The position numbers and the translations under genes were made by a program. The notes below the pieces were generated by a model. That model did no database searches, had not been told where the DNA came from, and worked only from the letters and a program-made list of their open reading frames with translations. A DNA stretch of 32,000 bases from Staphylothermus marinus F1 (GTDB taxonomy: Archaea; Thermoproteota; Thermoprotei_A; Sulfolobales; Desulfurococcaceae), in the NCBI RefSeq assembly GCF_000015945.1, contig NC_009033.1, forward strand, positions 1,470,001 to 1,502,000. The letters are read 5' to 3'. This document shows positions 12,724-26,766 of this stretch, in pieces (within the stretch, counting starts at the first letter, position 1; each line of letters opens with the position of its first letter).

Positions 12724-13335
12724 ATGGTCTTGATCGAGGAATCATATAATGTTGGAAAATATAGGTGCAGGATCATCTATAACAGTGTTCCTGGATTACC
12801 AATAGTCTTCCTTCACGGCTATAGTTTTACAAGTGATGTTTGGAGAGACATAGGTGTACTAGATAAGCTCGAGGAAGAAAAAATTCCATTCATAGCTATT
12901 GATATGCCTTATGGAGCTAGAAGCATATGTAGTCCTCATACACGTAGCGTTGATGAAAACTTATTTGTTCTCAAAGAGATTTATAGAGGTGTATTTGGTT
13001 CTTTAAAACCATTAATTGTTGGAGCAAGCTTGGGAGGATATATTGCTCTAAGATACGCATTAGAAAAACCTGTGGCGGGCTTATTTCTCATAGCTCCTGC
13101 TCATGCTTTAGAAAAGGAACTAGTTAAAAAATATAGATCATTAAGTGTTCCAACAATTATAATCTGGGGATCTAGGGATAGAATTGTTAAGCGTGAAGAA
13201 ATGGAGAAGCTTTCACAACTATTAGAAGCTAAGTTGTTAATATATGATAAAGCAGGTCATCCAGCATATCTAGATTACCCGGATAAATTCATTAATGACT
13301 TGTTATCTTTTCATAAAGCATTAAAGCTTGAATAA
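12724..13335 (+). CDS. Alpha/beta-fold hydrolase (esterase-like)
   Basis: HG oxyanion motif (FLHGYSF), nucleophile elbow GASLGG, and late D (SRDRIV) and H (AGHPAY). Confidence 0.7.
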   Translation: MVLIEESYNVGKYRCRIIYNSVPGLPIVFLHGYSFTSDVWRDIGVLDKLEEEKIPFIAIDMPYGARSICSPHTRSVDENLFVLKEIYRGVFGSLKPLIVGASLGGYIALRYALEKPVAGLFLIAPAHALEKELVKKYRSLSVPTIIIWGSRDRIVKREEMEKLSQLLEAKLLIYDKAGHPAYLDYPDKFINDLLSFHKALKLE

Positions 13336-13376
13336 AATAATGCTTTAAATAATACTATTTAAGAGGTGCTATTGTT

Positions 13377-14351
13377 TTGGCAAATGAATACTATTTAGCT
13401 ATTGATATAGGAGCGACAAATACTAGGATAGCTATTGGTTCTCGGAATGGAATAATAAATAAAATAACCTATAGGACTCCGAGGGAAGGAAACGAGCTGA
13501 GTATTCCTGTTAAAATATATGAGGAGATCAAGAAGAATTATGGGAAATACATTGACCAGATCAAAGCTGTAGGGATCGGGACGATTGGTCCCATAGATTT
13601 GAGGCGGGGAAGAGTTGTAAACACACCTAATCTACCCATACACACTTTTGAACTAAGAGATCCATTGATGGAATGGTTAAAGAAGCCTGTATATGTATTA
13701 AATGATGCAGTCTCTGGTGCTTGGGGAGAGAAATTCTTTGGTTTAGGCAGGAATTATTCCAACATAGTATATATAACTATGAGCACAGGTATTGGTGGAG
13801 GAGCAATTGTTAACGATCATCTCTTGCTGGGGAAGATGGGGAATGCCCACGAGATAGGACATATTGTTGTAAAATATGATTCAGATATTAAATGTGGTTG
13901 TGGAGGATATGGTCATTGGGAAGCATATGCTGGGGGAGCAAATATTCCCAGAACAGCCCGGGTCTTAGCTGAGAAGTATAAGCCATTAATCGAGACAGAA
14001 GCTTATCGAGAAGCGTTGAGAGGAGAACTAACTCCTCCAAAACTATTCGAATACTTTAGAAGAAACGATTTATTCGCAAAATATGTTGTGGAAGAAATAA
14101 TTGATGCATCAGCAGCAGGTCTCGCTACAACGATAAACCTGTATGACCCAGAAGTAGTAACTATTGGTGGAAGCATATATTTATATAATCAAGACATACT
14201 CAAAGAACCAATCATTAGGAAAGCACTTAAACACTTAGTAACTGAGCCACCAATTATTGATACAACACCTCTAGGCGGAGACATAGTATTATATGGAGCT
14301 TTAGCAACAGCAATTAATCCTCCAGAAGACCTATTAAGGTTTTATAGATGA
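13377..14351 (+). CDS. ROK-family sugar kinase (glucokinase or N-acetylglucosamine kinase type)
   Basis: N-terminal ATP motif LAIDIGATNTRIA, DxGxGIGGG-like STGIGGGAI, and ROK zinc motif GHIVV...CGCGGYGHWEAYAGG. TTG start. Confidence 0.8.
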   Translation: MANEYYLAIDIGATNTRIAIGSRNGIINKITYRTPREGNELSIPVKIYEEIKKNYGKYIDQIKAVGIGTIGPIDLRRGRVVNTPNLPIHTFELRDPLMEWLKKPVYVLNDAVSGAWGEKFFGLGRNYSNIVYITMSTGIGGGAIVNDHLLLGKMGNAHEIGHIVVKYDSDIKCGCGGYGHWEAYAGGANIPRTARVLAEKYKPLIETEAYREALRGELTPPKLFEYFRRNDLFAKYVVEEIIDASAAGLATTINLYDPEVVTIGGSIYLYNQDILKEPIIRKALKHLVTEPPIIDTTPLGGDIVLYGALATAINPPEDLLRFYR

Positions 14352-14417
14352 AACCATTTTAAACCCCTTAATACTCCTCGTTAAAATAGATATACTGTAC
14401 ATATGGGTTGTTAAGCC

Positions 14418-16634
14418 TTGGAGAAATGGTGGAAAAAACCTGTTAGAGTAATACAGTTCAATATAGAGGATCGTTATGGTAGGTATGTATCGAAAATAAA
14501 TGGTAAACAACTAGTCGAGCTAGCGAAGAGGCTTCACGCAAATGTCCTCGTAATATTTGCTAGGGATCCTTGGGGCAGAATATTTTATCGTGGAGGTAGT
14601 GTTGGGAAAGAGCATCCGAAAATGATTGGTGATATTGTTAGGGAAGCAGTAGAGGAGGGGCGTAGAATAGGAGTTAAAGTAGTCGTGATGGTTGGTCATA
14701 CTGCTAACAAATACTTATATCATCTACACAGTGATTGGGCACAAGTAAATCGTAATGGAGAAATCATTGTGTTAGAACACATACCTTTCTCCCTTGAACA
14801 CTATGAGCCTGAATGGCCACAGTTATGTATAAACAGCCCGTTCATAGAGCATGTTAAGAAAGAAGTAGTTGAAGCCCATAGCTTGGGAGTCGACGGTGTA
14901 TTCCTGGATAGTTTCCGTTATCAACCAGATATTGAAAGAGCATGTTATTGTGAATGGTGCCGGAGAAGGTTTAGAGAAGAACACGGATATGAGATGCCTA
15001 AAGAGCCGAATTGGCTGGATAAGCGCTGGAGAGAATTATGGGAGTGGAGATATAAGGTAGTTGTTGAAAGAATTAAGGAATTATACAAGTTATCTAAAGA
15101 GACCGATCCCGGAAAAGTATTTATGTATAATAGTCACCCAGGAGGATGGGCTGGTAGAACGAATCGAGTCGTAGAAGAAGCAAGGAACTATATAGATGTA
15201 GTATTCGCTGAGTGTAGCGAAGCAGATCATCAACCACCAGGCTTTATTACTGAAATGACAAAGCTGACACGAGCTATGAGCGGCGGGAAACCAGTGTGGA
15301 GTTCTAGAAACTATTTCCACTTATATAGAACAGTGATGTCAACAACGCCTATAGTTATTAAGCAGGGTTTAAGAGAAGCTGTACTTGGAGGAGGCTCGCC
15401 ATGGGCACTGATCTTCTCGATCAGCTATTTCCAAGACCCATCCTCACTAGATGCTATAGGGGAAGTATTTAAGCAATATGAAGAAATAGAAGAATACCTT
15501 GAAGATACTGAACCATATCGTTTCGCCGGCATACTTGTCTCAAACCATACACGAGATTATTATGGTAGAGGGCATCCTGAAAGATACGTTGATGGAATAC
15601 GTGGAATGTACTATGCATTAATCCATAGCCATATACCAGTAGAGTTTATTTCTGAAAAAGACGCTGTGAATCCAGATTATTTATCAAAATATAAAGTATT
15701 AATTGTTCCAAATACTGTGTGTTTAAGCGAGGAGATCGGTGACTCTATTAAAGAATATGTCCGTAGAGGAGGTAAACTATTATCAACGTATCTATCATCA
15801 ACACGGGATAAATACTGTATTAGAAGATATGATTTCTACTATCCAGAAGTTATAGGTGCTAGGTTTATAGGAGTATTGAGGAAGCCATGGACATATCTAA
15901 TACTTGATCTCGATAAGAAGCATCCATTATTCAATAATGTAAAAACAGAAACTATACTATGGGGAGATATGAGCTATGAATTCATAGCATCTAGGACAAG
16001 ACCTAATATTGGATGGCATACGATGCTAGATGATGTTATTGGAGAGGTTCTAGGATACATTGGATTATCAAGTACTGATTGGGGACATGAATACACTCTC
16101 GGCCGCTCACCCCCCGCACTAGGTGCTCGAACCAAGTTGCCGGGAATAATATTGAATAATTATGGAGAAGGTAAATCACTCTATTTCACAGGCCAGCTCG
16201 GCAGACATTATTGGAGAACAGGATTACCAATATATAAGAAATTGATTGAAAACAGCGTATTATATCTAGGTGGAGAACCAGATATACAAGTAATTGCTCC
16301 AGAAACTGTTCATTCAGAAATATTTGTTCAGGGCGAGAGAATAATTATTCACTTACTTAACCATACATATAATCAGAGAATAATGGCTAAGGGGATCGGT
16401 AGAGTAAAACAGCCTCTCCCACCATATGGTAGTGTAGACGCTGTTCATCCAGCTAGAGAAATTATACCTGTTAGCGGTGTTGAGATAAAAATAAAGAATA
16501 AAATGAACAATATAAAAGCATATACTCTCATATCTAGGAAGAACCTAGAAATAAAAACTACTGGGAACCAATTACAGATAAGGCTAGATAAACTTGACGA
16601 CTACGAAATAGTAGTGGTTGAGCCTAGGAAATAA
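14418..16634 (+). CDS. Putative glycoside hydrolase (GHL6-like TIM barrel plus GH42-type trimerisation/GATase-like domain)
   Basis: The N-terminus (WWKKPVRVIQFNIEDRYG..., CINSPFIEHVKKEVVEAHSLGVDGVFLDS) resembles the hypothetical glycosyl hydrolase 6 family from memory. The middle region (YKVLIVPNTVCLSEE...RRGGKLL) resembles the beta-galactosidase trimerisation domain. Confidence 0.55.
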   Translation: MEKWWKKPVRVIQFNIEDRYGRYVSKINGKQLVELAKRLHANVLVIFARDPWGRIFYRGGSVGKEHPKMIGDIVREAVEEGRRIGVKVVVMVGHTANKYLYHLHSDWAQVNRNGEIIVLEHIPFSLEHYEPEWPQLCINSPFIEHVKKEVVEAHSLGVDGVFLDSFRYQPDIERACYCEWCRRRFREEHGYEMPKEPNWLDKRWRELWEWRYKVVVERIKELYKLSKETDPGKVFMYNSHPGGWAGRTNRVVEEARNYIDVVFAECSEADHQPPGFITEMTKLTRAMSGGKPVWSSRNYFHLYRTVMSTTPIVIKQGLREAVLGGGSPWALIFSISYFQDPSSLDAIGEVFKQYEEIEEYLEDTEPYRFAGILVSNHTRDYYGRGHPERYVDGIRGMYYALIHSHIPVEFISEKDAVNPDYLSKYKVLIVPNTVCLSEEIGDSIKEYVRRGGKLLSTYLSSTRDKYCIRRYDFYYPEVIGARFIGVLRKPWTYLILDLDKKHPLFNNVKTETILWGDMSYEFIASRTRPNIGWHTMLDDVIGEVLGYIGLSSTDWGHEYTLGRSPPALGARTKLPGIILNNYGEGKSLYFTGQLGRHYWRTGLPIYKKLIENSVLYLGGEPDIQVIAPETVHSEIFVQGERIIIHLLNHTYNQRIMAKGIGRVKQPLPPYGSVDAVHPAREIIPVSGVEIKIKNKMNNIKAYTLISRKNLEIKTTGNQLQIRLDKLDDYEIVVVEPRK

Positions 16635-16635
16635 T

Positions 16636-17991
16636 TTATCTCACGGCTACAACGGATAACGCTTCTATAAATGCAGCAGTAAAAAGGATCAATGCACTGA
16701 TCACAAAGTATATTGTAAACTTGGATTCTTTTTCAATAAAGATCCTCATAGATAATGATGCGAAGAATGCGTAAGCTAGTAATTCTAGTATTGCATGAGG
16801 CATTAATGGCAATAATAGAATAGATAGATTACCTTCAGAGAGAGCAATGTTTATTGCAACTCCATAATATAGGGCAGCATTACCTAAGCCTACCCCTAAA
16901 TATAGTGGGCCTATGATTGGGATTGTTGAAATAAAGGATATTATGAAATTGTTTATGAAAATATTCCTCGTCAAATTGAATAGATCATTTGTTCTCAGTT
17001 CAACTAATTGCTTAGATGTCTCTTCATAGAGGCTATAATATGTTTGTGCACTAGTATATCCTATTATTGAGAACAATATAAATGATAAATAAATAAAACC
17101 ATAAACTCTTCCCACCTGCGAAGAAAAACTTTTTCTCCTATAATAAGCAGCTATACCAGCAATTAGCAACCCGTATCCTATTGTGCCCGTTAAATGGTTC
17201 ATGAAACCAATTATTCCCAGTAAACCATATATGCCTGCACCTAGAAAAGCTAGTGATAAAGCTAGTATTGGTATTTCTCCTCCATGTTCACCATATGTTA
17301 GTGTTGTTGTAATGGTTAATGGTGGTTCTGGATGGCTTCCATGAATAATTTTCACATGTCTATTATAGTTTCTAACAATAATGTAGTCCCAAATAATTAG
17401 GAATAATCCTACTGTGAGAAGTGTTGCCGCTACATATACTAGTCCATGTTCTACGTTAATCCTATTAGTAATGTGTATTCCGAGAAACTTCCCCTCTTCA
17501 CCATAGTAGTGATCCCTCATGGTTTTATCCACTACATATAATAGTATAGGATAAGCTATGCCTCCAGACAATAGTGTTGCTATTAATCCTGTTAGGGGCG
17601 AAGGTAAATCTCTCCTCATAACACCTGATCTATATAGTTTTATTATTGAATCATAGTCATCGAGTTTTTTCAGCCAATAATAGGATGTTATACCGCTATT
17701 AACTAGGTGTGTATGGGTTATTTTCAATAATCTATAAATAGATATAGCTGATGCAAGAATATATCCAATATATAGTGTTGCTAAACTAGTGTACCAGCTA
17801 CTGGTTGCTTCTTGGACACCGTGGAACATAATATTATATATTAATGATATATACGCAGGCAATGATATAATCAACATTATCCCTGGGAAAATATGTGGTA
17901 TATATGTTTCTTTTCTGAACTCAAAGCTTCTAACAAGTTTTTCTAAACCATTAGGTATGCTTGTCTTATTTTCTGTCTCCAGAGTACTCAA
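16636..17991 (-). CDS. Polytopic membrane protein with a C-terminal SpoIIM/DUF95-like domain
   Basis: Many TM helices. The C-terminal LLPLMPHAILELLAYAFFASLSMRIF resembles the PHGxxE(I/L)xA signature of DUF95. Confidence 0.5.
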   Translation of the reverse strand: MSTLETENKTSIPNGLEKLVRSFEFRKETYIPHIFPGIMLIISLPAYISLIYNIMFHGVQEATSSWYTSLATLYIGYILASAISIYRLLKITHTHLVNSGITSYYWLKKLDDYDSIIKLYRSGVMRRDLPSPLTGLIATLLSGGIAYPILLYVVDKTMRDHYYGEEGKFLGIHITNRINVEHGLVYVAATLLTVGLFLIIWDYIIVRNYNRHVKIIHGSHPEPPLTITTTLTYGEHGGEIPILALSLAFLGAGIYGLLGIIGFMNHLTGTIGYGLLIAGIAAYYRRKSFSSQVGRVYGFIYLSFILFSIIGYTSAQTYYSLYEETSKQLVELRTNDLFNLTRNIFINNFIISFISTIPIIGPLYLGVGLGNAALYYGVAINIALSEGNLSILLLPLMPHAILELLAYAFFASLSMRIFIEKESKFTIYFVISALILFTAAFIEALSVVAVR

Positions 17992-18069
17992 AGCTTCTGC
18001 ACCGTATTCTTCATATTTCTCAGTATCTGTTAATCTATATTGCTATGTATAAAATAATGTGTTTGGTGA

Positions 18070-19035
18070 ATGCTTATGGCTAAATCCATAATCCTACATG
18101 GTGGAGCGGGTAGTTGGAAGGATTCAAGAGTTAGGGAGAAAGCATATATTGTGATGGAGAATTGTACGAGGAAAGCATGGACAGTTCTGAATAATAGTAA
18201 TAATGCGTTGGAAGCAGTTGTAGAAGCTGTTAAATGCATGGAGGATTCAGGATATTTAAACGCTGGTGTGGGTAGTGTGCTCGATATATTGGGTAATAGA
18301 ACGCTTGATGCAGGCATAATGACTTCTAACGGTTTAATAGGTGCTGTATCAGCTGTTAAAGCTACTCGTAACCCAGTAGTTCTAGCAAGAATAGTTGCTG
18401 AGAAAACACCACATATAATAATCGGTGGTGATGGAGCAGACACTCTAGCCAAATTATATAGTCTACCACCCCTCCCACCCCCGCCAAAACATGTTGTTGA
18501 AAGATACTATGAGAGCCTCAAAAAACTATTGAGTGGAGAAATAAAGAGGGATTATTGGCGAAAAATACTGAGCTTTATAGAAAGCAATGAAAACTATAGG
18601 AGACTAGTTGAATCACTAGCTAGTTTTGCTGATACTGTGGGAGCAGTTGCAGTAGATGATAATGGATTATTGGCAACAGCAGTTAGTACGGGGGGAGTAA
18701 TACTTAAGCTTCCAGGTAGAATAGGTGATTCACCAATACCAGGTGCTGGATTCTACTCATCCAGAAAAGTTGCATGTAGCGCTACAGGCTTCGGAGAAAT
18801 GATTATAAGATCAATGCCCTGCTTAAAACTTGCAGAATACATTGATCAAGGAATGGATTTTGAAGAAGCACTAGACAATGTTATAACATATGTTAATGAG
18901 ACAGTTGGAAAAGACACAATGGGCTTCATTGCAGTGGACTATGAAGGGAGAATTGGGTGGAGATATAATACGGAAGCAATGCTTATAGGGTATATGGATA
19001 GAGAAGGCAGAGTAATAGTAAATCATAAACCATAA
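18070..19035 (+). CDS. Ntn-hydrolase of the asparaginase-2 family (isoaspartyl peptidase / L-asparaginase / glycosylasparaginase type)
   Basis: ILHGGAGS, the autoprocessing/nucleophile motif DTVGAVAVD, and GRIGDSPIPGAGFY. A proline-rich linker (PPLPPPP) precedes the predicted cleavage site. Confidence 0.85.
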   Translation: MLMAKSIILHGGAGSWKDSRVREKAYIVMENCTRKAWTVLNNSNNALEAVVEAVKCMEDSGYLNAGVGSVLDILGNRTLDAGIMTSNGLIGAVSAVKATRNPVVLARIVAEKTPHIIIGGDGADTLAKLYSLPPLPPPPKHVVERYYESLKKLLSGEIKRDYWRKILSFIESNENYRRLVESLASFADTVGAVAVDDNGLLATAVSTGGVILKLPGRIGDSPIPGAGFYSSRKVACSATGFGEMIIRSMPCLKLAEYIDQGMDFEEALDNVITYVNETVGKDTMGFIAVDYEGRIGWRYNTEAMLIGYMDREGRVIVNHKP

Positions 19036-19054
19036 CTCTTCATGGATAAAGAAA

Positions 19055-19738
19055 ATGACCCATAACGCTCAGGAATTCTGCTGGAAAAAATATGGAGACC
19101 TAATGGAGAAAACGATAGAATGGTTTAAAATAAAAGGATCAAGATACCGTGCTAAGCCATGGAAACAACTCTTCATCGAGAAATATACTCATGGAGCAGT
19201 ATTGGATCTAGGTGGGGGAATTGCTTCAACCTCTAGATATTTTTTAGATAAGAAAATCATTGAAAAACTAGTGATCGTGGATTTAGCTGAGACACCACTA
19301 CTAAGTATTAAGAACACCAATGCACTTGCCATAGAGATTTGCGGAGACATATTAGATAATATGTTTTTAGAAAACTATTTCAACACAATATATTTATTCG
19401 CAGTTCTCCACCATATCCTAGGCAGAGAATGCAGAATAGAATTGTTAAAAAATATAAAGCATATGCTTAGGAATAATGGACATGTAATAATTACTGTTTG
19501 GAACCCAGATTTAGATTCTCTAAAGAAGAAATACATGATCAAAACCTTAGAATCCGAGAAAGATGTATTAATATGTGATAGTATAAGTTGTAGATACTAT
19601 TATCTCTATGATATTGAAGAACTATGCAATGAGATAAGATACGTAGGACTCGAAATCATTGAGAAAGGATATTTTTACCAAAACACTAAGCGAAAAAACA
19701 TAACCCGCAACATATATGTAGTTGCCGAGAAAAAATAA
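19055..19738 (+). CDS. Class I SAM-dependent methyltransferase
   Basis: Motif I VLDLGGGIASTS, post-I VIVDL, and a later NGHVIITVWN segment. It lies 19 nt after the asparaginase-family gene. Confidence 0.7.
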   Translation: MTHNAQEFCWKKYGDLMEKTIEWFKIKGSRYRAKPWKQLFIEKYTHGAVLDLGGGIASTSRYFLDKKIIEKLVIVDLAETPLLSIKNTNALAIEICGDILDNMFLENYFNTIYLFAVLHHILGRECRIELLKNIKHMLRNNGHVIITVWNPDLDSLKKKYMIKTLESEKDVLICDSISCRYYYLYDIEELCNEIRYVGLEIIEKGYFYQNTKRKNITRNIYVVAEKK

Positions 19739-19875
19739 TAGGGTATGAGTATAGTTGATTTTGTTTTCTAAGCGTTTTTATTTTATGAAGTCCTTATTGA
19801 TCGCTTTGTAAAATTAAGATAACAAATACTGGTATGTGAGAGTTAATGTAAAATTTAAATGTTTTAATTTATTTC

Positions 19876-21009
19876 TTGTCTATTGGGGTTGTTGAGAGGT
19901 TATGTTTCATGTACATGTATGGTGATCATTTTAAGAGAGCTGTTGGCTTCTCTGAAGCATCCAATATTAGGCGTAATGAGACAACTGATATTGTTCATCG
20001 TCTGGGTGTTATTGCTCCTAATCGTGTCTATTTGAATAATTATCCTATTAGTAATCCCATAGCTGTTTTTAATTCTGCTCTAGCTGTTGATGAGGAGGAT
20101 GCTATATTATATGCTAGGATAATAGTTGGTTATTTCATGTATGTTTCAGCAATTATTGCGATCAGGGTTCCATTAGACGATATTTTCTCGGGTTCAGGAG
20201 ATATTAATATAAACTATTATGCTGGTCAACCAGTGGTTTATCCTTCGACAAAATATGATTTATGGGGCACAGAGGATCCTAGGGTTTACGTGATCGATGG
20301 TAAACTATACATGACATATACTGGTAGAACAGTAAATTATTTTAATCCACGTATTGGTAGGGAGAGGACTCTGCCTGTTACAGCTGTAGAGGAGGAGAAA
20401 TATTATAAGTGGAAGAAGATACACGTATATGTTTTCCCTCCAGGATTAAGAGAGCATGTTGTAAGTAATAAGGATGCTTTCTTAGTGAAGCTAAGCAATG
20501 ATCTATTATTGTTTCATAGGCCGCACATGGATGATGATGGTTTCTATCTGTTAACTAGTAGGATAGGCTTAGAAGAACTATATAGCGTAGCTGAACAGGT
20601 TAGAGAAGTCGTATTAAGGGATACTATATGGGTAACTGATAAAGCTAGTTTTGAAAGCAAAATAGGATGGGCCACGCCACCAATAAAGCTTAGGGATAAT
20701 GAAATAATTGCTCTACTCCACGGTGTAGACTATGAATTAGAAGCATATCGTCTCTTCGCAATGCAACTAGAATACTCGAGGAACGAAGGCATAATTGTGA
20801 AAGCTGTTACACCAACATATATTATGGAGCCCAAACTACTATACGAAATATTCGGTGACAGACCCTACACTATATTCCCCTGTGGATTATGGAGGCTTAG
20901 CAGAGACAAGATACTGATAAGTTATGGAGCCGGAGACTATATGATAGGGCTTGGAGAAATAGATCTAAACGAGCTCTTAAGCATACTTGATAAAGGACGC
21001 ATATATTAG
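19876..21009 (+). CDS. GH130-like glycosidase/phosphorylase (former DUF377, five-bladed propeller type)
   Basis: Segments NPIAVFNSA, WGTEDPRVYVIDGKLYMTYTG, NKDAFLV, LFHRP, IGWATPPIKL, LLHGVD...YRLFAMQLE and ISYGAGDYMIGLG follow the GH130 pattern from memory. The true start may be an internal ATG. Confidence 0.65.
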   Translation: MSIGVVERLCFMYMYGDHFKRAVGFSEASNIRRNETTDIVHRLGVIAPNRVYLNNYPISNPIAVFNSALAVDEEDAILYARIIVGYFMYVSAIIAIRVPLDDIFSGSGDININYYAGQPVVYPSTKYDLWGTEDPRVYVIDGKLYMTYTGRTVNYFNPRIGRERTLPVTAVEEEKYYKWKKIHVYVFPPGLREHVVSNKDAFLVKLSNDLLLFHRPHMDDDGFYLLTSRIGLEELYSVAEQVREVVLRDTIWVTDKASFESKIGWATPPIKLRDNEIIALLHGVDYELEAYRLFAMQLEYSRNEGIIVKAVTPTYIMEPKLLYEIFGDRPYTIFPCGLWRLSRDKILISYGAGDYMIGLGEIDLNELLSILDKGRIY

Positions 21010-21144
21010 TATTTTATGATTAATATCATAGTGATCGATCATAGATTTTTCTAGGTAAATGAATATAGATCGATTTATATGTTTATCATATTTATATCTT
21101 GTCTAGCTAATTATTATTCACTGGATTAATGGTGGTGTAGTTCT

Positions 21145-22971
21145 GTGGGCGGAATATTTGGTGTTGTTTGTAAGGAGAAGATCCGCAGGGGAGTAGTGTT
21201 TGAGGGGCTTAGACGCCTCCTCTACAGAGGCTATGACGGTGTTGGTGTAGCTTTTCTCGATGATGAAGGCAATATAGTTATTAGGAAAAAACCTGGACAT
21301 CTTGAAAAGGTTGCTAATGAAGTAGACCTATTTAATATTCCATCGAGAATAGCTTTGGGGCATACTAGATATGCTAGTCGTGGATGGCCCACGGTTGAAA
21401 ATACTCATCCTCTAACTGATTGTACTGGGAAGATCGCGGTTGTAGGAGATGGTTTAATCGAAAACTATGAAGCTTACAAGGAAAAACTAGTTAGGAAAGG
21501 ACATAGTTTCTCATCTAGAACAGATACAGAGGTTTATGCTCATTTACTAGAGGAATCAGTATTTAGGGAGAAAAAGGATCCATTGGAAGCTATTGCTAGA
21601 TATATGCGTGAGCTTAGAGGTATGTATGCTGTCGCAGCTATCATTGCTGGGAAAGAAGTATTTTATGTTGCCCATAATGGTCAACCACTCATAATTGGGT
21701 TAACACATAATAATGAATGTATTTATTTATCAAGCGATATTCCAAGCCTATATGGTTACGCTGATGAAGCATATATATTGGAGGAGGGTATGGCTGCTGA
21801 GATAAGCATAGATAATATTAGGATAATTAATGCTGAAAACATGGAGCCAATAAGTATTGAGAGATTAATTAAGAAGAGAGTAAAATACCAAGTAGAACTT
21901 GTTGGAAAAGCTGGGTATCCACATTATATGTTGAAGGAAATATATGAAATACCAGACTCTATGATCAAGACAACATATTCCTTAATGGAAAAATATCTAC
22001 GATTAGCAGCAATGATAATTTATGGTGCTAAAAACGTATATGTTATTGGTAATGGTACAAGTCTTCACGCAGGAATGGTGTCATCATATTACTTCACTGA
22101 TCTAGCAAATATAAACGTCAATGTAGTTAGCGCGGCTGAATTCCCCTATTATGCTTTGAAAAATGTTTCAACAGGTACGGTTATCATAGCTATTAGTCAG
22201 AGTGGGGAGACAAGCGATGTCATTAAGAGTGTAAAACTTGCCAAACAATATGGAGCAGTAATTATAGGGGTTACAAACGTTGTAGGCTCTCGTCTCTCGC
22301 TAGAATCAAATGTTTATCTACCAATAGGTGCTGGCCCGGAACTAGCTGTTCCAGCAACAAAAACTTTCGTATCAAGCCTTGTTGCACTAGCATTACTTGC
22401 TGGATACACTGGATTATATACTGGTAAGCTTAGCCAAACCGAGTATGTCGGGATCACTGAAAAAATACGTGAGACAGCTAAAGAGTTAAGAAAAGATCTC
22501 CAGGTCTATGATAATATTGCGGAAAAGATCTCTGAGAAACTGTTAGGATGGAAAAACATGTATGTATCAAGTAGTGGAATAAACTATCCCGTAGCACTAG
22601 AAGCTTCTCTGAAATTCAAGGAAGCATCCATAATACATGCTGAAGGTGTTCAATTAGGTGAGTTAAGGCATGGACCATTAGTGCTTATAAGAGATAAGTA
22701 TCCAGTAATTATTATAAAGCCTGTTGAAGAAGAAGCTTTACCTCTATATAATAAGGTTGCCGAGTATGTATTGTCAAAGAATGGTTTCCTAATAACAATT
22801 ACACATGATGATATAGGCTATGGCGAGGTAGTTAAGGTTAAACCCACCCATAAAATATTATCGCCAATAACCACTATTATCCCCCTACAGCTTATAGCGT
22901 ATCATCTAGGAGTAAAACAGGGATATCCAGTAGATACACCGCCCGGATTAGCCAAAGCAATAACTACATAA
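21145..22971 (+). CDS. GlmS-like protein (glutamine--fructose-6-P aminotransferase fold) with a degenerate glutaminase active site and an intact double-SIS isomerase domain
   Basis: Collinear with E. coli GlmS over its full length: EGLRRLxYRGYD, GHTRY, RTDTEV, SQSGETSD, GELRHGP and a C-terminal LAKAITT. The residue after the start is Gly rather than Cys (GGC at 21148-21150). The HNG motif reads GDG (GAT at 21448-21450). GTG start. Confidence 0.85.
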   Translation: MGGIFGVVCKEKIRRGVVFEGLRRLLYRGYDGVGVAFLDDEGNIVIRKKPGHLEKVANEVDLFNIPSRIALGHTRYASRGWPTVENTHPLTDCTGKIAVVGDGLIENYEAYKEKLVRKGHSFSSRTDTEVYAHLLEESVFREKKDPLEAIARYMRELRGMYAVAAIIAGKEVFYVAHNGQPLIIGLTHNNECIYLSSDIPSLYGYADEAYILEEGMAAEISIDNIRIINAENMEPISIERLIKKRVKYQVELVGKAGYPHYMLKEIYEIPDSMIKTTYSLMEKYLRLAAMIIYGAKNVYVIGNGTSLHAGMVSSYYFTDLANINVNVVSAAEFPYYALKNVSTGTVIIAISQSGETSDVIKSVKLAKQYGAVIIGVTNVVGSRLSLESNVYLPIGAGPELAVPATKTFVSSLVALALLAGYTGLYTGKLSQTEYVGITEKIRETAKELRKDLQVYDNIAEKISEKLLGWKNMYVSSSGINYPVALEASLKFKEASIIHAEGVQLGELRHGPLVLIRDKYPVIIIKPVEEEALPLYNKVAEYVLSKNGFLITITHDDIGYGEVVKVKPTHKILSPITTIIPLQLIAYHLGVKQGYPVDTPPGLAKAITT

Positions 22972-22993
22972 GATCCATTATTCATTTTATAAT

Positions 22994-24175
22994 TCACAAT
23001 ATATTTTCTCCCCGAACATATACGGATTCGACTCTTAAATTATTATTTAAGACTACGAGGTCTGCTGTGTATCCAGGAATTATTGCTCCAGCGTCACGTA
23101 TACCTACTGCTGAGGCTGGATTATATGTTAATGTTCTCACAGCATCTTTTAATGGGATCCCTAACTTGACAAGGTTTCTTAGTGCTTTATCCATTGTGAG
23201 AGTGCTTCCAGCAAGAGCTCCATTTCTAAGCCTACTAACTCCTTCTTCAACAATTATTTCTAATCCTCCCAAACTATATGTTCCATCAGGGAGATCCGTT
23301 GCAATTATTGAATCGGTAACAGTTACTATTCTCTCTATACCAGCATATCTTATCGTGAACTTTATCATAACAGGTGAGACGTGGATAAAGTCACATATAA
23401 GCTCTAAGTATACTTGAGGGCTTTCTAGGAGAGCAACTACAACACCTGGTTCTCGATGATGAATCTGTCTCATCCCATTATAGAGGTGGGTAGCTCTATT
23501 CGCCCCCACATATATGGCGGCTTTAGCTTCTTCATATGTAGCATTTGTATGGCCTATTGAAACATTTATTCCTAGACTCCTAGCATACTCTATAAGCTCT
23601 AACGCCCCCTTAACTTCGGGTGCTAATGTTATGGTTCTTAATTTTCCTCTTGACGTTTCCCAATACTCCTTTAACTCGCTAATACTTGGAGAACGTATAT
23701 ATTTGGGATTCTGTGCCCCCGCCTTCTCCCTGCTTATATATGGTCCCTCCATGTGGAGTCCTTCAATCAATGCCCCCTCGATTCTATCTCTTTGATAATC
23801 CATTGTTTCAGCAACACCCTTAGTAGCTATTAGGAGAGCTTCATGTGGCGCCGTCATAGTAGTTGGTAGAAACCTTGTTACTCCATGAACAGCATAGGCT
23901 TTACTCATTTCTACTAATGTTTCCACTACTTTCTCCACAGATCCTCCTAGAGAGCTTTGTGTAATATCATGTCCTCGAATACCATGGGTATGTATATCTA
24001 TAAATCCGGGAGTCAGTATTTTTCCCTCCAAGTTTTCGCCGCCGCATCTTTTCCCATAGTAGACTTTCTTAATGATCCCGTTCTCTACCTCTACGGTTCC
24101 TGGATATATCTCCTCAAAAGGTGTTATTATCCTCGCATTACTTAGAATAATTCTTCCCATAATCACCACCCACAA
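22994..24175 (-). CDS. nagA: N-acetylglucosamine-6-phosphate deacetylase
   Basis: Amidohydrolase motifs GFIDIHTHG, GLHMEGPYIS, IGHTNAT, THLYNGM and ICDFIHV. Convergent with the GlmS-like gene, 22 nt apart. Confidence 0.85.
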   Translation of the reverse strand: MWVVIMGRIILSNARIITPFEEIYPGTVEVENGIIKKVYYGKRCGGENLEGKILTPGFIDIHTHGIRGHDITQSSLGGSVEKVVETLVEMSKAYAVHGVTRFLPTTMTAPHEALLIATKGVAETMDYQRDRIEGALIEGLHMEGPYISREKAGAQNPKYIRSPSISELKEYWETSRGKLRTITLAPEVKGALELIEYARSLGINVSIGHTNATYEEAKAAIYVGANRATHLYNGMRQIHHREPGVVVALLESPQVYLELICDFIHVSPVMIKFTIRYAGIERIVTVTDSIIATDLPDGTYSLGGLEIIVEEGVSRLRNGALAGSTLTMDKALRNLVKLGIPLKDAVRTLTYNPASAVGIRDAGAIIPGYTADLVVLNNNLRVESVYVRGENIL

Positions 24176-24316
24176 ATATCCGGAGACTATATATTTTCAA
24201 CATCATTTATTATGCTCCCGAGTATTAAGCAGAGCAGAAATGATCTAATATTCTAATTTATATCTCAATAAGTTCATCTACAAACTTCTTATATAATTCC
24301 TCACACTCTTTAGGAG

Positions 24317-24380
24317 AGACTATTCGCTTATTTAAATACTAGGCTTATTTTTAGGGAATTATGAAAAACATAATTATTTG
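24317..24380 (+). repeat. Solo left-end module of the dispersed unit
   Basis: AGACTATTCGCTTATTTAAATACTAGGCTTATTTTTAGGGAATTATGAAAAACATAATTATTTG aligns with the first 60-65 nt of copies 1-3. No G+C-rich core follows it. Confidence 0.7.
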
Positions 24381-24550
24381 ATATGATTAGTTGTTGAATT
24401 CACTTTCAGAAACGAGCTCTTTCATTTCTCATCGTCTTCTCTATGTATTCTCTGCGTCGCAGTACTCTAATATACAATTATTATTACTCTAATTATTTAT
24501 GGTGAAGATTGATTATTAATTATGTAAATAGTACTTGTTGGAGAAGAGCA

Positions 24551-25069
24551 ATGAGCGTGGTCATCATAATTCCTCGCAGAGTTGCAGAGCATGCTAGACG
24601 AGAGGCTGAGAAAAAGGGTATGACGCTTGAAGAGTATATTATTGAGCTATTATCCCATAACCTCGATCCTATGGATAAAGCCATAGAATATGTTGAAGCA
24701 GCACAGGAACTTCTACGAGAAGCTGTGGAGGAGCTTGGAAAAGGCAATCTCAGGCAAGCATCTGAGAAATTATGGGGGGCTACAGCTCTAACAGTGAAAG
24801 CTTATGCACTACATAGAGATGGTAAGCAGTTGAGAAGTCATGGAGAATTATGGGAGTATAAGGATAAATTAGTAATTGAGCTGGGTGAATGGGTATATGA
24901 TGCATGGATGGCTGCAAACGGTATGCATACATGCTTTTATGAAGGATGGTGTAGCGCTAGGGATGTAGAAATAGCGATTAAACATATAGAAAAACTAGTT
25001 AATGCCGTGAAGGAAACTATGAATAAAACAAGACACAGTACAAGCTCGAGGAATCAGGGAACCTCATAA
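24551..25069 (+). CDS. PaREP1-family protein with an N-terminal ribbon-helix-helix-like segment
   Basis: PaREP1 signature EAAQELLREAVEELGKGNLRQASEKLWGATALTVKAYA. The N-terminus IPRRVAEHARREAEKKGMTLEEYIIELL looks RHH/CopG-like. I prefer the ATG at 24551 over the track start at 24509. Confidence 0.7.
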   Translation: MSVVIIIPRRVAEHARREAEKKGMTLEEYIIELLSHNLDPMDKAIEYVEAAQELLREAVEELGKGNLRQASEKLWGATALTVKAYALHRDGKQLRSHGELWEYKDKLVIELGEWVYDAWMAANGMHTCFYEGWCSARDVEIAIKHIEKLVNAVKETMNKTRHSTSSRNQGTS

Positions 25070-25271: not shown

Positions 25272-25526
25272 GTGGCTGGTGCTAATGTGATTTATACTAT
25301 GATATCCAAGCATGTTGCTGAAGAACTATGCTTGGAGAAGATTAGTAGGAGTATGTTCAGAATTGCTAATAGTGAAGTAGCTGAATATTCTGTTTCAGAA
25401 GCATATATAGTTGTTGAAGATAGAGATGTTGTTTTTGTTTTCTATCTAGATTTTAAAGTTTATATTGTTATGATGAACTTAATATATATTGGTGTGAGTA
25501 GTCTTGGGTTTTTGGGAATCATATAA
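25272..25526 (+). CDS. Hypothetical small protein (doubtful)
   Basis: 84-aa ORF with a GTG start preceded by GGAGGAGG. No family recognised. It overlaps the symporter start. Confidence 0.25.
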
Positions 25527-26766
25527 GCGGTTCCCTGTTATCTATAAGGTTGCTATTGCTTTTGTTCTAGGTATTGTTGCCGGCGTCATAGTGGGTCCGC
25601 CGATAGCTGTTATTAAGCCTCTTGGCGATGTCTTGATAAGATTATTGAAGATGATTGTTGTCCCAATAGTGTTGTTCTCTCTAGTGGTTGGTTCAGCGAG
25701 TATTTCTCCTCTTAAACTCGGTAAGGTTGGTGTAAAGATTATTGTCTACTATATTGTTACATCGGCTATAGCGGTTTTGATAGGTATAGCGATGGGGTTA
25801 TTGTTTCAGCCAGGTGTAGGAGTACACCTTGCTGGGACAGGTTATAGTGTTAAAACAGTTACTCCACCATCACCTATAGATGTATTACTTAACATTATAC
25901 CTACAAATCCGTGGGCTGCATTAGTTAATGGAAATGTTCTCCAAATAATATTCTTCGCAATAGTACTAGGTATTGCGCTAGCATATCTAAAGGATAGTAA
26001 GGATGAGAGGTTAAGAAATCTTGGCTCAACAGTTCTCAACGTATTTGATGGCCTCGCTGAAGCAATATATAAGATTGTTAGGGGAATTCTTGAATACATG
26101 CCGTACGGTGTCTTCGCACTCATAGGATACGCTGTTGCAATAACGGGGCCCGGAGTCTTAGGACCTCTAGGTGTTGCTGTAGTTGCACTATACTTGGGAC
26201 TTTTCATACATATCTTCGCAACATATGGTAGCATACTAGCAGTGTTTAGATTCAATATAATCAAGTTCTTGGCTAAAGCGAAGGATGCAATGTTAACAGC
26301 ATTCGTCACCAGGTCATCTTCAGGCACACTACCAATTACAATGAGTGTTGCAGAGGAGAAAATGGGTATTAAGAAATCCATTTATGCATTCACACTACCA
26401 TTAGGAGCAACAATAAACATGGATGGAACAGCAATGTACCAAGCCATAGCAACAATGTTCATTGCTAACGCTCTAGGAATACATTTAACCGTAGTACATT
26501 ATGGCATGATAGTTCTCACCGCAGTCCTAGCATCCATAGGAACAGCAGGAGTACCCGGTGCAGGACTAATAATGTTAGCCCTAGTACTACAAGCAGTAGG
26601 ACTCCCACTAACAGAACCCAACGTCGCCCTAGCATATTCGTTAATAGCAGGCATAGATGTAATCCTAGACATGGGTAGAACAATGGTCAACGTAACCGGC
26701 GATCTAACTGGAACATTAATTGTTGCAAAAACAGAGAACGAAACAGACTTATCCAAGTGGAAATAA
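25504..26766 (+). CDS. gltP: Dicarboxylate/amino acid:cation symporter (GltP/DAACS family)
   Basis: [24 protein letters not shown] and [10 protein letters not shown] motifs, with 8+ TM segments. TTG start. The long minus-strand ORFs inside it are shadows. Confidence 0.9.

Follow-up and report, generated by a model that had tools for sequence, protein, structure and literature searches.

A GlmS homologue of Staphylothermus marinus without the glutaminase nucleophile belongs to a conserved Thermoproteota family and is most likely a glutamine-independent enzyme of amino-sugar metabolism

Glutamine-dependent glucosamine 6-phosphate (GlcN-6-P) synthase, GlmS/GFAT (EC 2.6.1.16; TIGR01135; structures 2J6H, 4AMV, 3OOJ), joins an N-terminal glutaminase domain, with Cys1 as nucleophile, to an isomerase domain. 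The window analysed here (32,000 nucleotides (nt) of the S. marinus F1 genome, NC_009033.1, positions 1,470,001 to 1,502,000) encodes a second, GlmS-like protein that shares this two-domain architecture, is collinear with GlmS over ~600 residues at 31-37% identity, carries identical isomerase catalytic and phosphate-binding residues, scores above the glmS cut-offs and has both domains predicted to superpose on those of GlmS (TM 0.86-0.92). Unlike GlmS, it lacks Cys1, Asn98 (Asp instead) and Trp74, its C-terminal tail and channel positions are relaxed, it falls in a separate clade, and its gene lies by nagA rather than glmU; with Cys1, Asn98 and Trp74 missing, this paralogue cannot be expected to act as a glutamine amidotransferase.

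Other relatives share only the isomerase half. GlmD (Thermococcus kodakarensis/Pyrococcus) and NagB-II (Shewanella SO3506; PDB 8EOL) are homologous to the GlmS isomerase domain, and the reaction proposed here for the S. marinus protein, glutamine-independent conversion of GlcN-6-P to fructose 6-phosphate (Fru-6-P) and NH3, is theirs; both sides have amino-sugar catabolic gene partners, and among nagA-positive genomes the distribution of the paralogue complements that of genes encoding the SIS domains only. GlmD and NagB-II differ in being ~330 amino acids (aa) long with no N-domain, while the S. marinus paralogue keeps a conserved, formerly glutaminase domain of 240 aa. For SIS-type GlmD the assignment as GlcN-6-P deaminase is accepted, and the enzyme can also run toward synthesis at high ammonium (PMC12385614). 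NagB (PF01182) would occupy the same pathway position after NagA with an unrelated fold. Among the top structural matches is the E. coli GlmS C1A mutant (3OOJ), likewise full-length and nucleophile-less, in which the fold and the binding of glutamate and sugar phosphate persist; it is, however, a laboratory point mutant that retains Asn98 and Trp74, whereas the natural family has fixed Asp98 and lost the channel Trp. The gene and its distinguishing positions are as follows.

21145..22971, + strand: Cys-less full-length GlmS paralogue, 608 aa (open reading frame (ORF); Pfam; TIGR01135; AF2/Foldseek)
21131..21137, + strand: Shine-Dalgarno-like GGTGGTG, 7 nt 5′ of the GTG start (read from the sequence)
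21145..21150, + strand: GTG start, then GGC (Gly2) aligned with nucleophile Cys1 (sequence, alignment)
21445..21453, + strand: GGA GAT GGT, G101-D102-G103 in place of H97-N98-G99 of the oxyanion hole (sequence, alignment)
22954..22956, + strand: AAA, Lys604, equivalent of E. coli Lys603 in the C-terminal tail (alignment; invariant in Cys-less and canonical groups)

The upstream frame is closed by an in-frame TAA (21127-21129), followed by W-W-C-S-S, and no ATG, GTG or TTG occurs between this TAA and the GTG start, so no extension can give the protein an N-terminal Cys, processed or otherwise; Gly2 is encoded by GGC at 21148-21150. The domain layout comprises a degenerate class-II glutaminase domain (~1-240) and two SIS isomerase subdomains (~250-608). 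HMMER alignment to the E. coli GlmS structures 4amv, 3ooj and 2j6h (E ~1e-87) is collinear over residues 2-607 and gives the replacements C1 to G2, W74 to Y76, H77 to R79 and H97/N98 to G101/D102. Residues kept (E. coli numbering) are R26, R73, H86, G99 and D123 in the glutaminase domain and S303, S347, Q348, S349, T352, K485, E488, H504 and K603 in the isomerase domain; the motifs HTRY, RTDTEV, SQSGETSD, GELRHGP and LAKAITT are present. A preliminary description made from the sequence had reported Gly for Cys1, GDG for HNG, retention of Arg73 (HTRY) and Asp123 (RTDTEV), intact isomerase signatures and collinearity with E. coli GlmS over both domains; each of these readings is borne out by the alignment and the reading frame. 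An Rfam scan of 20500-24600 matched no family (e.g. glmS ribozyme).

Profile models place the protein with GlmS over its whole length (505 bits on NF001484; 494 bits on TIGR01135 against a cut-off of 418, residues 3-607; Pfam GATase_6/7 and two SIS domains), whereas scores are far under cut-off on the deaminase models GlmD NF041128 (76.6 vs 580) and NagB-II NF046059 (119.7 vs 430), as they are on the FrlB and AgaS models, the NCBIfam FrlB matches being weak. In the AF2 model (ma6f9c32ee67e; pLDDT 93.2, pTM 0.91), Foldseek superposes the N-domain on 1XFF, the glutaminase domain of E. coli, with a TM of 0.92 and the C-domain on isomerase domains with a TM of 0.86-0.88. When the whole chain is superposed on E. 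coli and human GlmS/GFAT, the TM reaches only ~0.54 (root-mean-square deviation 11-17 Å), which would correspond to a relative domain orientation different from that of the GlmS crystal forms, a prediction on which our interpretation does not lean. Compared with the described enzyme types, the protein has the two-domain architecture and the isomerase catalytic and phosphate-binding residues of GlmS and keeps Gly99, with the Cys1 nucleophile, the oxyanion Asn98 and the Trp74 gate absent; it is not the ~330-aa single SIS module, scoring above cut-off, of SIS-type deaminases (608 aa with an additional N-domain), and shares with these a genomic and phyletic tie to amino-sugar catabolism through nagA. 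Glutamine-dependent synthase activity is predicted to be absent because the nucleophile is missing.

More than 100 homologues share the M-G-G-I-F start and Asp for Asn98, and all named ones are from Thermoproteota. Among the best 120 (53-74% identity) nearly all have M-G-G-I-F and G/M-D-G instead of H-N-G, with named sources in Desulfurococcales, Acidilobales, Sulfolobales and Thermoproteales; the 90% cluster of the S. marinus protein includes the S. hellenicus protein. All 35 homologues cut from genomes of the same order start with M-, L- or V-G-G, or once M-S-G, following a closed or start-less frame, and these include branches at 38-45% identity. An exhaustive search of representatives (1.8 billion proteins) gave 727 bits for the cluster (50%) of the S. 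marinus protein itself, then 473 and 451 bits, and ~390 for canonical GlmS; the few representatives scoring between these levels also begin M-G-G, the named ones being from Desulfurococcaceae and Caldivirga.

In a maximum-likelihood tree of 91 sequences, all 42 Cys-less proteins lie on one side of a branch with SH-aLRT 100% and 48 Cys-bearing GlmS on the other, the latter including the canonical S. marinus and S. tokodaii copies and bacterial sequences. Between these 42 and 48 sequences, position 1 is Gly in 41/42 versus Cys in 48/48, and position 98 is Asp in 41/42 versus Asn in 48/48; Trp74 is replaced by Tyr or Phe in 39 of the 42. R26, R73, G99 and D123 are conserved at 95-100% in the Cys-less family and the nine isomerase residues listed above at 93-100%, with catalytic K485, E488, H504 and K603 at 98-100%. 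Near the sugar site the family specifically has Pro in place of A400 and Ser in place of Gly at residue 476. The ratio of non-synonymous to synonymous substitution rates (dN/dS) against the same-genus orthologue is 0.10 overall, 0.15 in the N-domain and 0.066 in the isomerase domain. Mean identity of the N- and C-domains is 39% vs 50% within the Cys-less family and 44% vs 42% within canonical GlmS.

An artefact, whether an error of sequencing, a wrongly called start or a glmS pseudogene in decay, has nothing in its favour beyond the unusual residues themselves and is refuted by these data: across independent assemblies the identical N-terminus and the Asp recur in >100 homologues, the frame upstream of the GTG is closed, purifying selection at a dN/dS of 0.10 fits neither a pseudogene nor an erroneous sequence, and the model has a pLDDT of 93. 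Cys and HNG in orthologues, which the preliminary description had named as the sign of such errors, are replaced there by the same Gly and Asp. The GlmS-like gene is a member of an old, conserved, Thermoproteota-wide and apparently mis-annotated family; databases name all its members glutamine--fructose-6-phosphate transaminase (isomerizing)/GlmS because their scores exceed the glmS model cut-offs.

A602, V607 and Y491, invariant in canonical GlmS, are variable in the Cys-less family. Structural work on E. coli GlmS places Trp74, Ala602 and the C-terminal tail along the ammonia channel; relaxation at A602, V607 and Y491 together with loss of Trp74 fits a loss of ammonia channelling. The N-domain retains the Ntn (N-terminal nucleophile hydrolase) fold and the residues holding the α-amino acid part of glutamine, with nucleophile, oxyanion Asn and channel Trp lost, and would serve as a non-catalytic structural or ligand-sensing module. 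A metal or disulfide site formed by C9, C93 and C192, conserved in the close alignment, was considered and dropped, as the D-C pair is also present in canonical S. marinus GlmS and C9 and C192 are not conserved clade-wide.

Conservation of N-domain ligand-binding residues without the catalytic ones, the presence of paralogue and canonical GlmS together in most genomes and the predicted inter-domain arrangement unlike that of E. coli GlmS crystals would all suit a non-catalytic pseudoenzyme that senses GlcN-6-P or Fru-6-P together with an amino acid and regulates, for example, via a heterodimer with canonical GlmS. We consider this very improbable, as K485, E488, H504 and K603 are kept at 98-100% in a very old family and would be needless in a pure sensor, and in two genomes (G058 and G077) the Cys-less type occurs with no canonical GlmS found.

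Genomic association was examined in 36 loci, namely the window and 35 fetched loci of ~19 kb around family members, with clustering of neighbouring ORFs. nagA, encoding N-acetylglucosamine (GlcNAc) 6-phosphate deacetylase, is found in 13/36 and is the only recurrent neighbour carrying functional information; the others are ABC (ATP-binding cassette) ATPases (9 loci) and a synteny block with tryptophanyl-/tyrosyl-tRNA synthetase genes (TrpRS/TyrRS; 6 loci, close lineages only). The arrangement varies across deep clades: the two genes are convergent in Staphylothermus, co-directional in G211, divergent in genus g34 and most Sulfolobaceae, and convergent or co-directional in family f5. In S. tokodaii the Cys-less gene is divergent from a nagA-like amidohydrolase gene and next to a Dpp-type ABC ATPase gene, and no S. 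tokodaii entry for this flanking ATPase was found in the PDB. Genetically tractable Sulfolobales of the Saccharolobus islandicus or S. solfataricus type likewise carry both genes.

Co-occurrence was counted in genomes at least 95% complete. In f13 (Sulfolobaceae-like), 14 have both genes, two nagA only, none the paralogue only and 19 neither; in f1, the family of S. marinus, 13 have both, none nagA only, 11 the paralogue only and ~10 neither, a count that leaves out nagA-positive G301, which lay outside the paralogue search; in f5 all 11 have both, with none in any other class. Four genomes with nagA and no paralogue (G055, G256, G006 and G028; two f13, two f7) have instead a GlmD-like gene of ~320-360 aa encoding the SIS domains only; in G055 (C1:1736683-1738709; locus L174) a ~320-aa homologue of the GlmS isomerase domain adjoins nagA. 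This SIS-only gene beside nagA matches both glmS and GlmD models, below both cut-offs. Of all the evidence, this pairing of nagA with one of two genes, the paralogue or a SIS-only gene of deaminase type, argues most strongly for a deaminase role. One further locus (L160:11141-13466) has a SIS-only gene, nagA and the Cys-less paralogue all inside 5 kb.

A canonical glmS is present elsewhere in the S. marinus genome (1,570,485 bp), at G000:C1:780243-782048, as the preliminary description had proposed to look for: its product begins L-CGIIGVV, contains VVHNGIIQN and reaches 691.6 bits with the TIGR01135 model. Directly 3′ of it is a nucleotidyltransferase/acetyltransferase gene of archaeal glmU type. 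The surroundings of the GlmS-like gene in the window are different.

12724-13335, + strand: α/β hydrolase (same-strand run)
13377..14351, + strand: ROK-family sugar kinase, candidate GlcNAc/hexose kinase (PF00480, 178.9 bits)
14418..16634, + strand: 738-aa glycosidase-like protein, GHL6 and GH42 middle domain, with a faint GlmA second domain
18070..19035, + strand: Asparaginase_2 family Ntn hydrolase (PF01112, 255.5 bits; the family includes glycosylasparaginase and isoaspartyl peptidase)
19055-19738, + strand: methyltransferase (same-strand run)
19876..21009, + strand: GH130 family phosphorylase-like gene, directly upstream of the GlmS-like gene (PF04041, 270.8 bits)
22994..24175, - strand: nagA, GlcNAc-6-phosphate deacetylase, convergent after a 22-nt gap (TIGR00221, 319.8 bits vs cut-off 225.65)

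The GlmS-like gene ends the same-strand run that begins at 12724, and convergent nagA closes the block, its stop codon lying 22 nt from that of the GlmS-like gene, a spacing that the preliminary description had given. Among NCBIfam models the ROK kinase matches ATP-dependent glucokinase best, though under the cut-off. The block (12724-24175) is plausibly a salvage cluster for GlcNAc and N-glycans (mannose-GlcNAc, GlcNAc-Asn), and all of it is syntenic in a same-genus genome (locus L133) at 81-94% protein identity. Just past nagA are a PaREP1/PaREP8-family gene (24509-25069; 98 bits) and then a sodium:dicarboxylate symporter gene (25504-26766).

A search of the S. marinus genome for NagB (PF01182) found none, and its only other SIS proteins are a phosphoglucose/phosphomannose isomerase (PGI/PMI; TIGR02128, above cut-off) and 6-phospho-3-hexuloisomerase. 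With NagA present and neither NagB nor a SIS-only deaminase, the paralogue is the only visible candidate for removal of GlcN-6-P. The genome also carries a PIG-L family deacetylase gene (G000:C1:717062-717442; 117 bits), and a Thermococcus-type diacetylchitobiose deacetylase (Dac) route may co-exist in S. marinus with the NagA route.

Which reaction the protein catalyses, which way it runs and what the N-domain does are inferred from these observations. The complete double-SIS isomerase domain would interconvert GlcN-6-P with Fru-6-P and free ammonia without use of glutamine, a chemistry shared with GlmD and NagB-II, both SIS-only deaminases. In S. marinus it would run in the catabolic direction, at the step after NagA, completing a route from glycosidases via the ROK kinase, NagA and the GlmS-like enzyme to Fru-6-P. 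The family thus read is probably a glutamine-independent GlcN-6-P/Fru-6-P plus NH3 enzyme, acting in S. marinus as the deaminase of the GlcNAc and N-glycan salvage cluster; the catabolic role proposed in the preliminary description gains support from comparative genomics (linkage to nagA, no NagB or SIS-only deaminase, GlmD-like SIS-only substitutes).

Several observations weigh against this assignment. A full-text literature search returned no biochemical or genetic data for any Cys-less GlmS member, nor any characterised example or NagA pathway in Crenarchaeota. The gene occurs without nagA in 11 f1 genomes and in genera g39 and g78, where its neighbours are housekeeping genes; a search of four nagA-less carrier genomes found no PIG-L deacetylase, and the Thermococcus-type Dac route, considered as an alternative there, does not explain the gene in those four. 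The paralogue is accompanied by a SIS-only GlmD-like gene adjoining nagA in G166, and by a SIS-only gene not beside nagA in G077, so that a simple deaminase would be redundant in both. The dead N-domain is itself conserved (dN/dS 0.15; R26, R73, D123 and G99 kept; Asp102 nearly invariant), although a plain deaminase can do without such a domain, as the examples of GlmD and NagB-II show. Finally, G058 and G077 (97-99% complete) have the Cys-less type, and a canonical query found no canonical GlmS in either; these genomes may belong to amino-sugar salvagers, or the Cys-less enzyme may be used there for synthesis. Both (genus g23) have two nagA matches each.

The last of these points bears directly on ammonia-dependent GlcN-6-P synthesis, in which hyperthermophiles would make amino sugars from free NH3 without glutamine and the link to nagA would reflect the shared GlcN-6-P node. 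Such a role would suit the many genomes that hold the gene without nagA or PIG-L, amid housekeeping genes, as well as the two near-complete genomes with no canonical GlmS, and GlmD itself runs toward synthesis at high ammonium. An ammonium transporter gene (PF00909, 348 bits) is adjacent and divergent at L165:10931-12139 (G160, Desulfurococcaceae-like); nagA is 10 kb away there. That adjacency was seen in one locus only, however. Canonical glmS persists beside glmU in nearly all carriers, S. marinus included. The paralogue's dominant neighbour is nagA, and where nagA occurs without the paralogue, a SIS-only gene of deaminase-like type takes the paralogue's place. The equilibrium also favours deamination at physiological ammonia, and a dedicated synthase is rated as unlikely.

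A broader proposal would accommodate both directions. The former glutaminase domain may have become a new ligand-sensing or ammonia-handling module, making the family a bidirectional valve between GlcN-6-P and Fru-6-P plus NH3 that is controlled by nitrogen status and acts as the sole GlcN-6-P synthase in some hyperthermophiles (G058 and G077). The domain retains the anchors R73, T76 and D123 for the α-amino acid, and has a near-invariant Asp in place of the oxyanion Asn. It may bind glutamine, another amino acid bearing an amine, or NH4+, hydrolyse none of them, and gate the sugar-phosphate site. We put this forward tentatively, as possible though on balance rather doubtful.

A different reaction at the SIS site is also conceivable: GalN-6-P (galactosamine 6-phosphate) deaminase/isomerase (AgaS-like), Amadori deglycase (FrlB/FraB-like, acting on heat-driven glycation) or amino-sugar-phosphate epimerase. 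SIS-only relatives of the GlmS isomerase domain catalyse such reactions, the NCBIfam FrlB matches are in keeping with this, if weak, and the two family-specific substitutions, at A400 and residue 476, lie near the sugar site. The cluster in the window also has Asparaginase_2, kinase and dicarboxylate-type transporter genes, a set that loosely resembles the Salmonella fra locus. Nevertheless, every GlmS sugar-binding, phosphate-binding and catalytic residue is kept, the FrlB, AgaS, GlmD and NagB-II models are far under cut-off with the glmS models above, and the conserved partner NagA yields GlcN-6-P; a change of reaction seems improbable.

The sole epimerase lead came from S. tokodaii, in which ST2245 reportedly is a GlcN-6-P 4-epimerase (EC 5.1.3.42) and ST2186 the GlmS, findings attributed to Dadashipour in 2018. 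Identity of the Cys-less family with ST2245 is rejected by gene positions in that genome (G090, recognised by a 100% match of P0294). It has only two GlmS homologues, the canonical at 2,185.6 kb and the Cys-less at 2,553.9 kb, 368 kb apart; ST2186 and ST2245 are just 59 gene numbers apart, which leaves room for no more than one GlmS homologue between the two. Two points calibrate the numbering: the sole phosphoglucomutase/phosphomannomutase (PGM/PMM) gene at 262 kb as ST0242, and a dihydrodipicolinate synthase (DHDPS)-family gene at 2,482 kb as ST2479. At ~1 kb per gene number the canonical copy is ST2186, and ST2245 falls at about 2,245 kb, a position without any SIS gene. The region G090:C1:2236000-2254000 (locus L132) carries DHDPS-family, TauE, uracil-DNA glycosylase (UDG), short-chain dehydrogenase, AAA ATPase and glutamate dehydrogenase genes. 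A ROK-family search intended to add a calibration point from hexokinase ST2354 gave no match.

We most likely have here an enzyme, derived from GlmS and independent of glutamine, that keeps a dead glutaminase domain and in S. marinus would serve as the deaminase of the NagA pathway. Without Cys1 the activity that the GlmS label implies is predicted to be absent, and the label would misstate amino-sugar metabolism in reconstructions of Sulfolobales, Desulfurococcales, Thermoproteales and related metagenome-assembled genomes. If the deaminase role holds, it would supply the missing step of GlcNAc and N-glycan catabolism in crenarchaea that have NagA and neither NagB nor GlmD, and would represent a natural conversion of an amidotransferase into a deaminase with the dead glutaminase domain still under selection. 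Family members occur in genetically tractable Sulfolobales, which makes the question directly testable.

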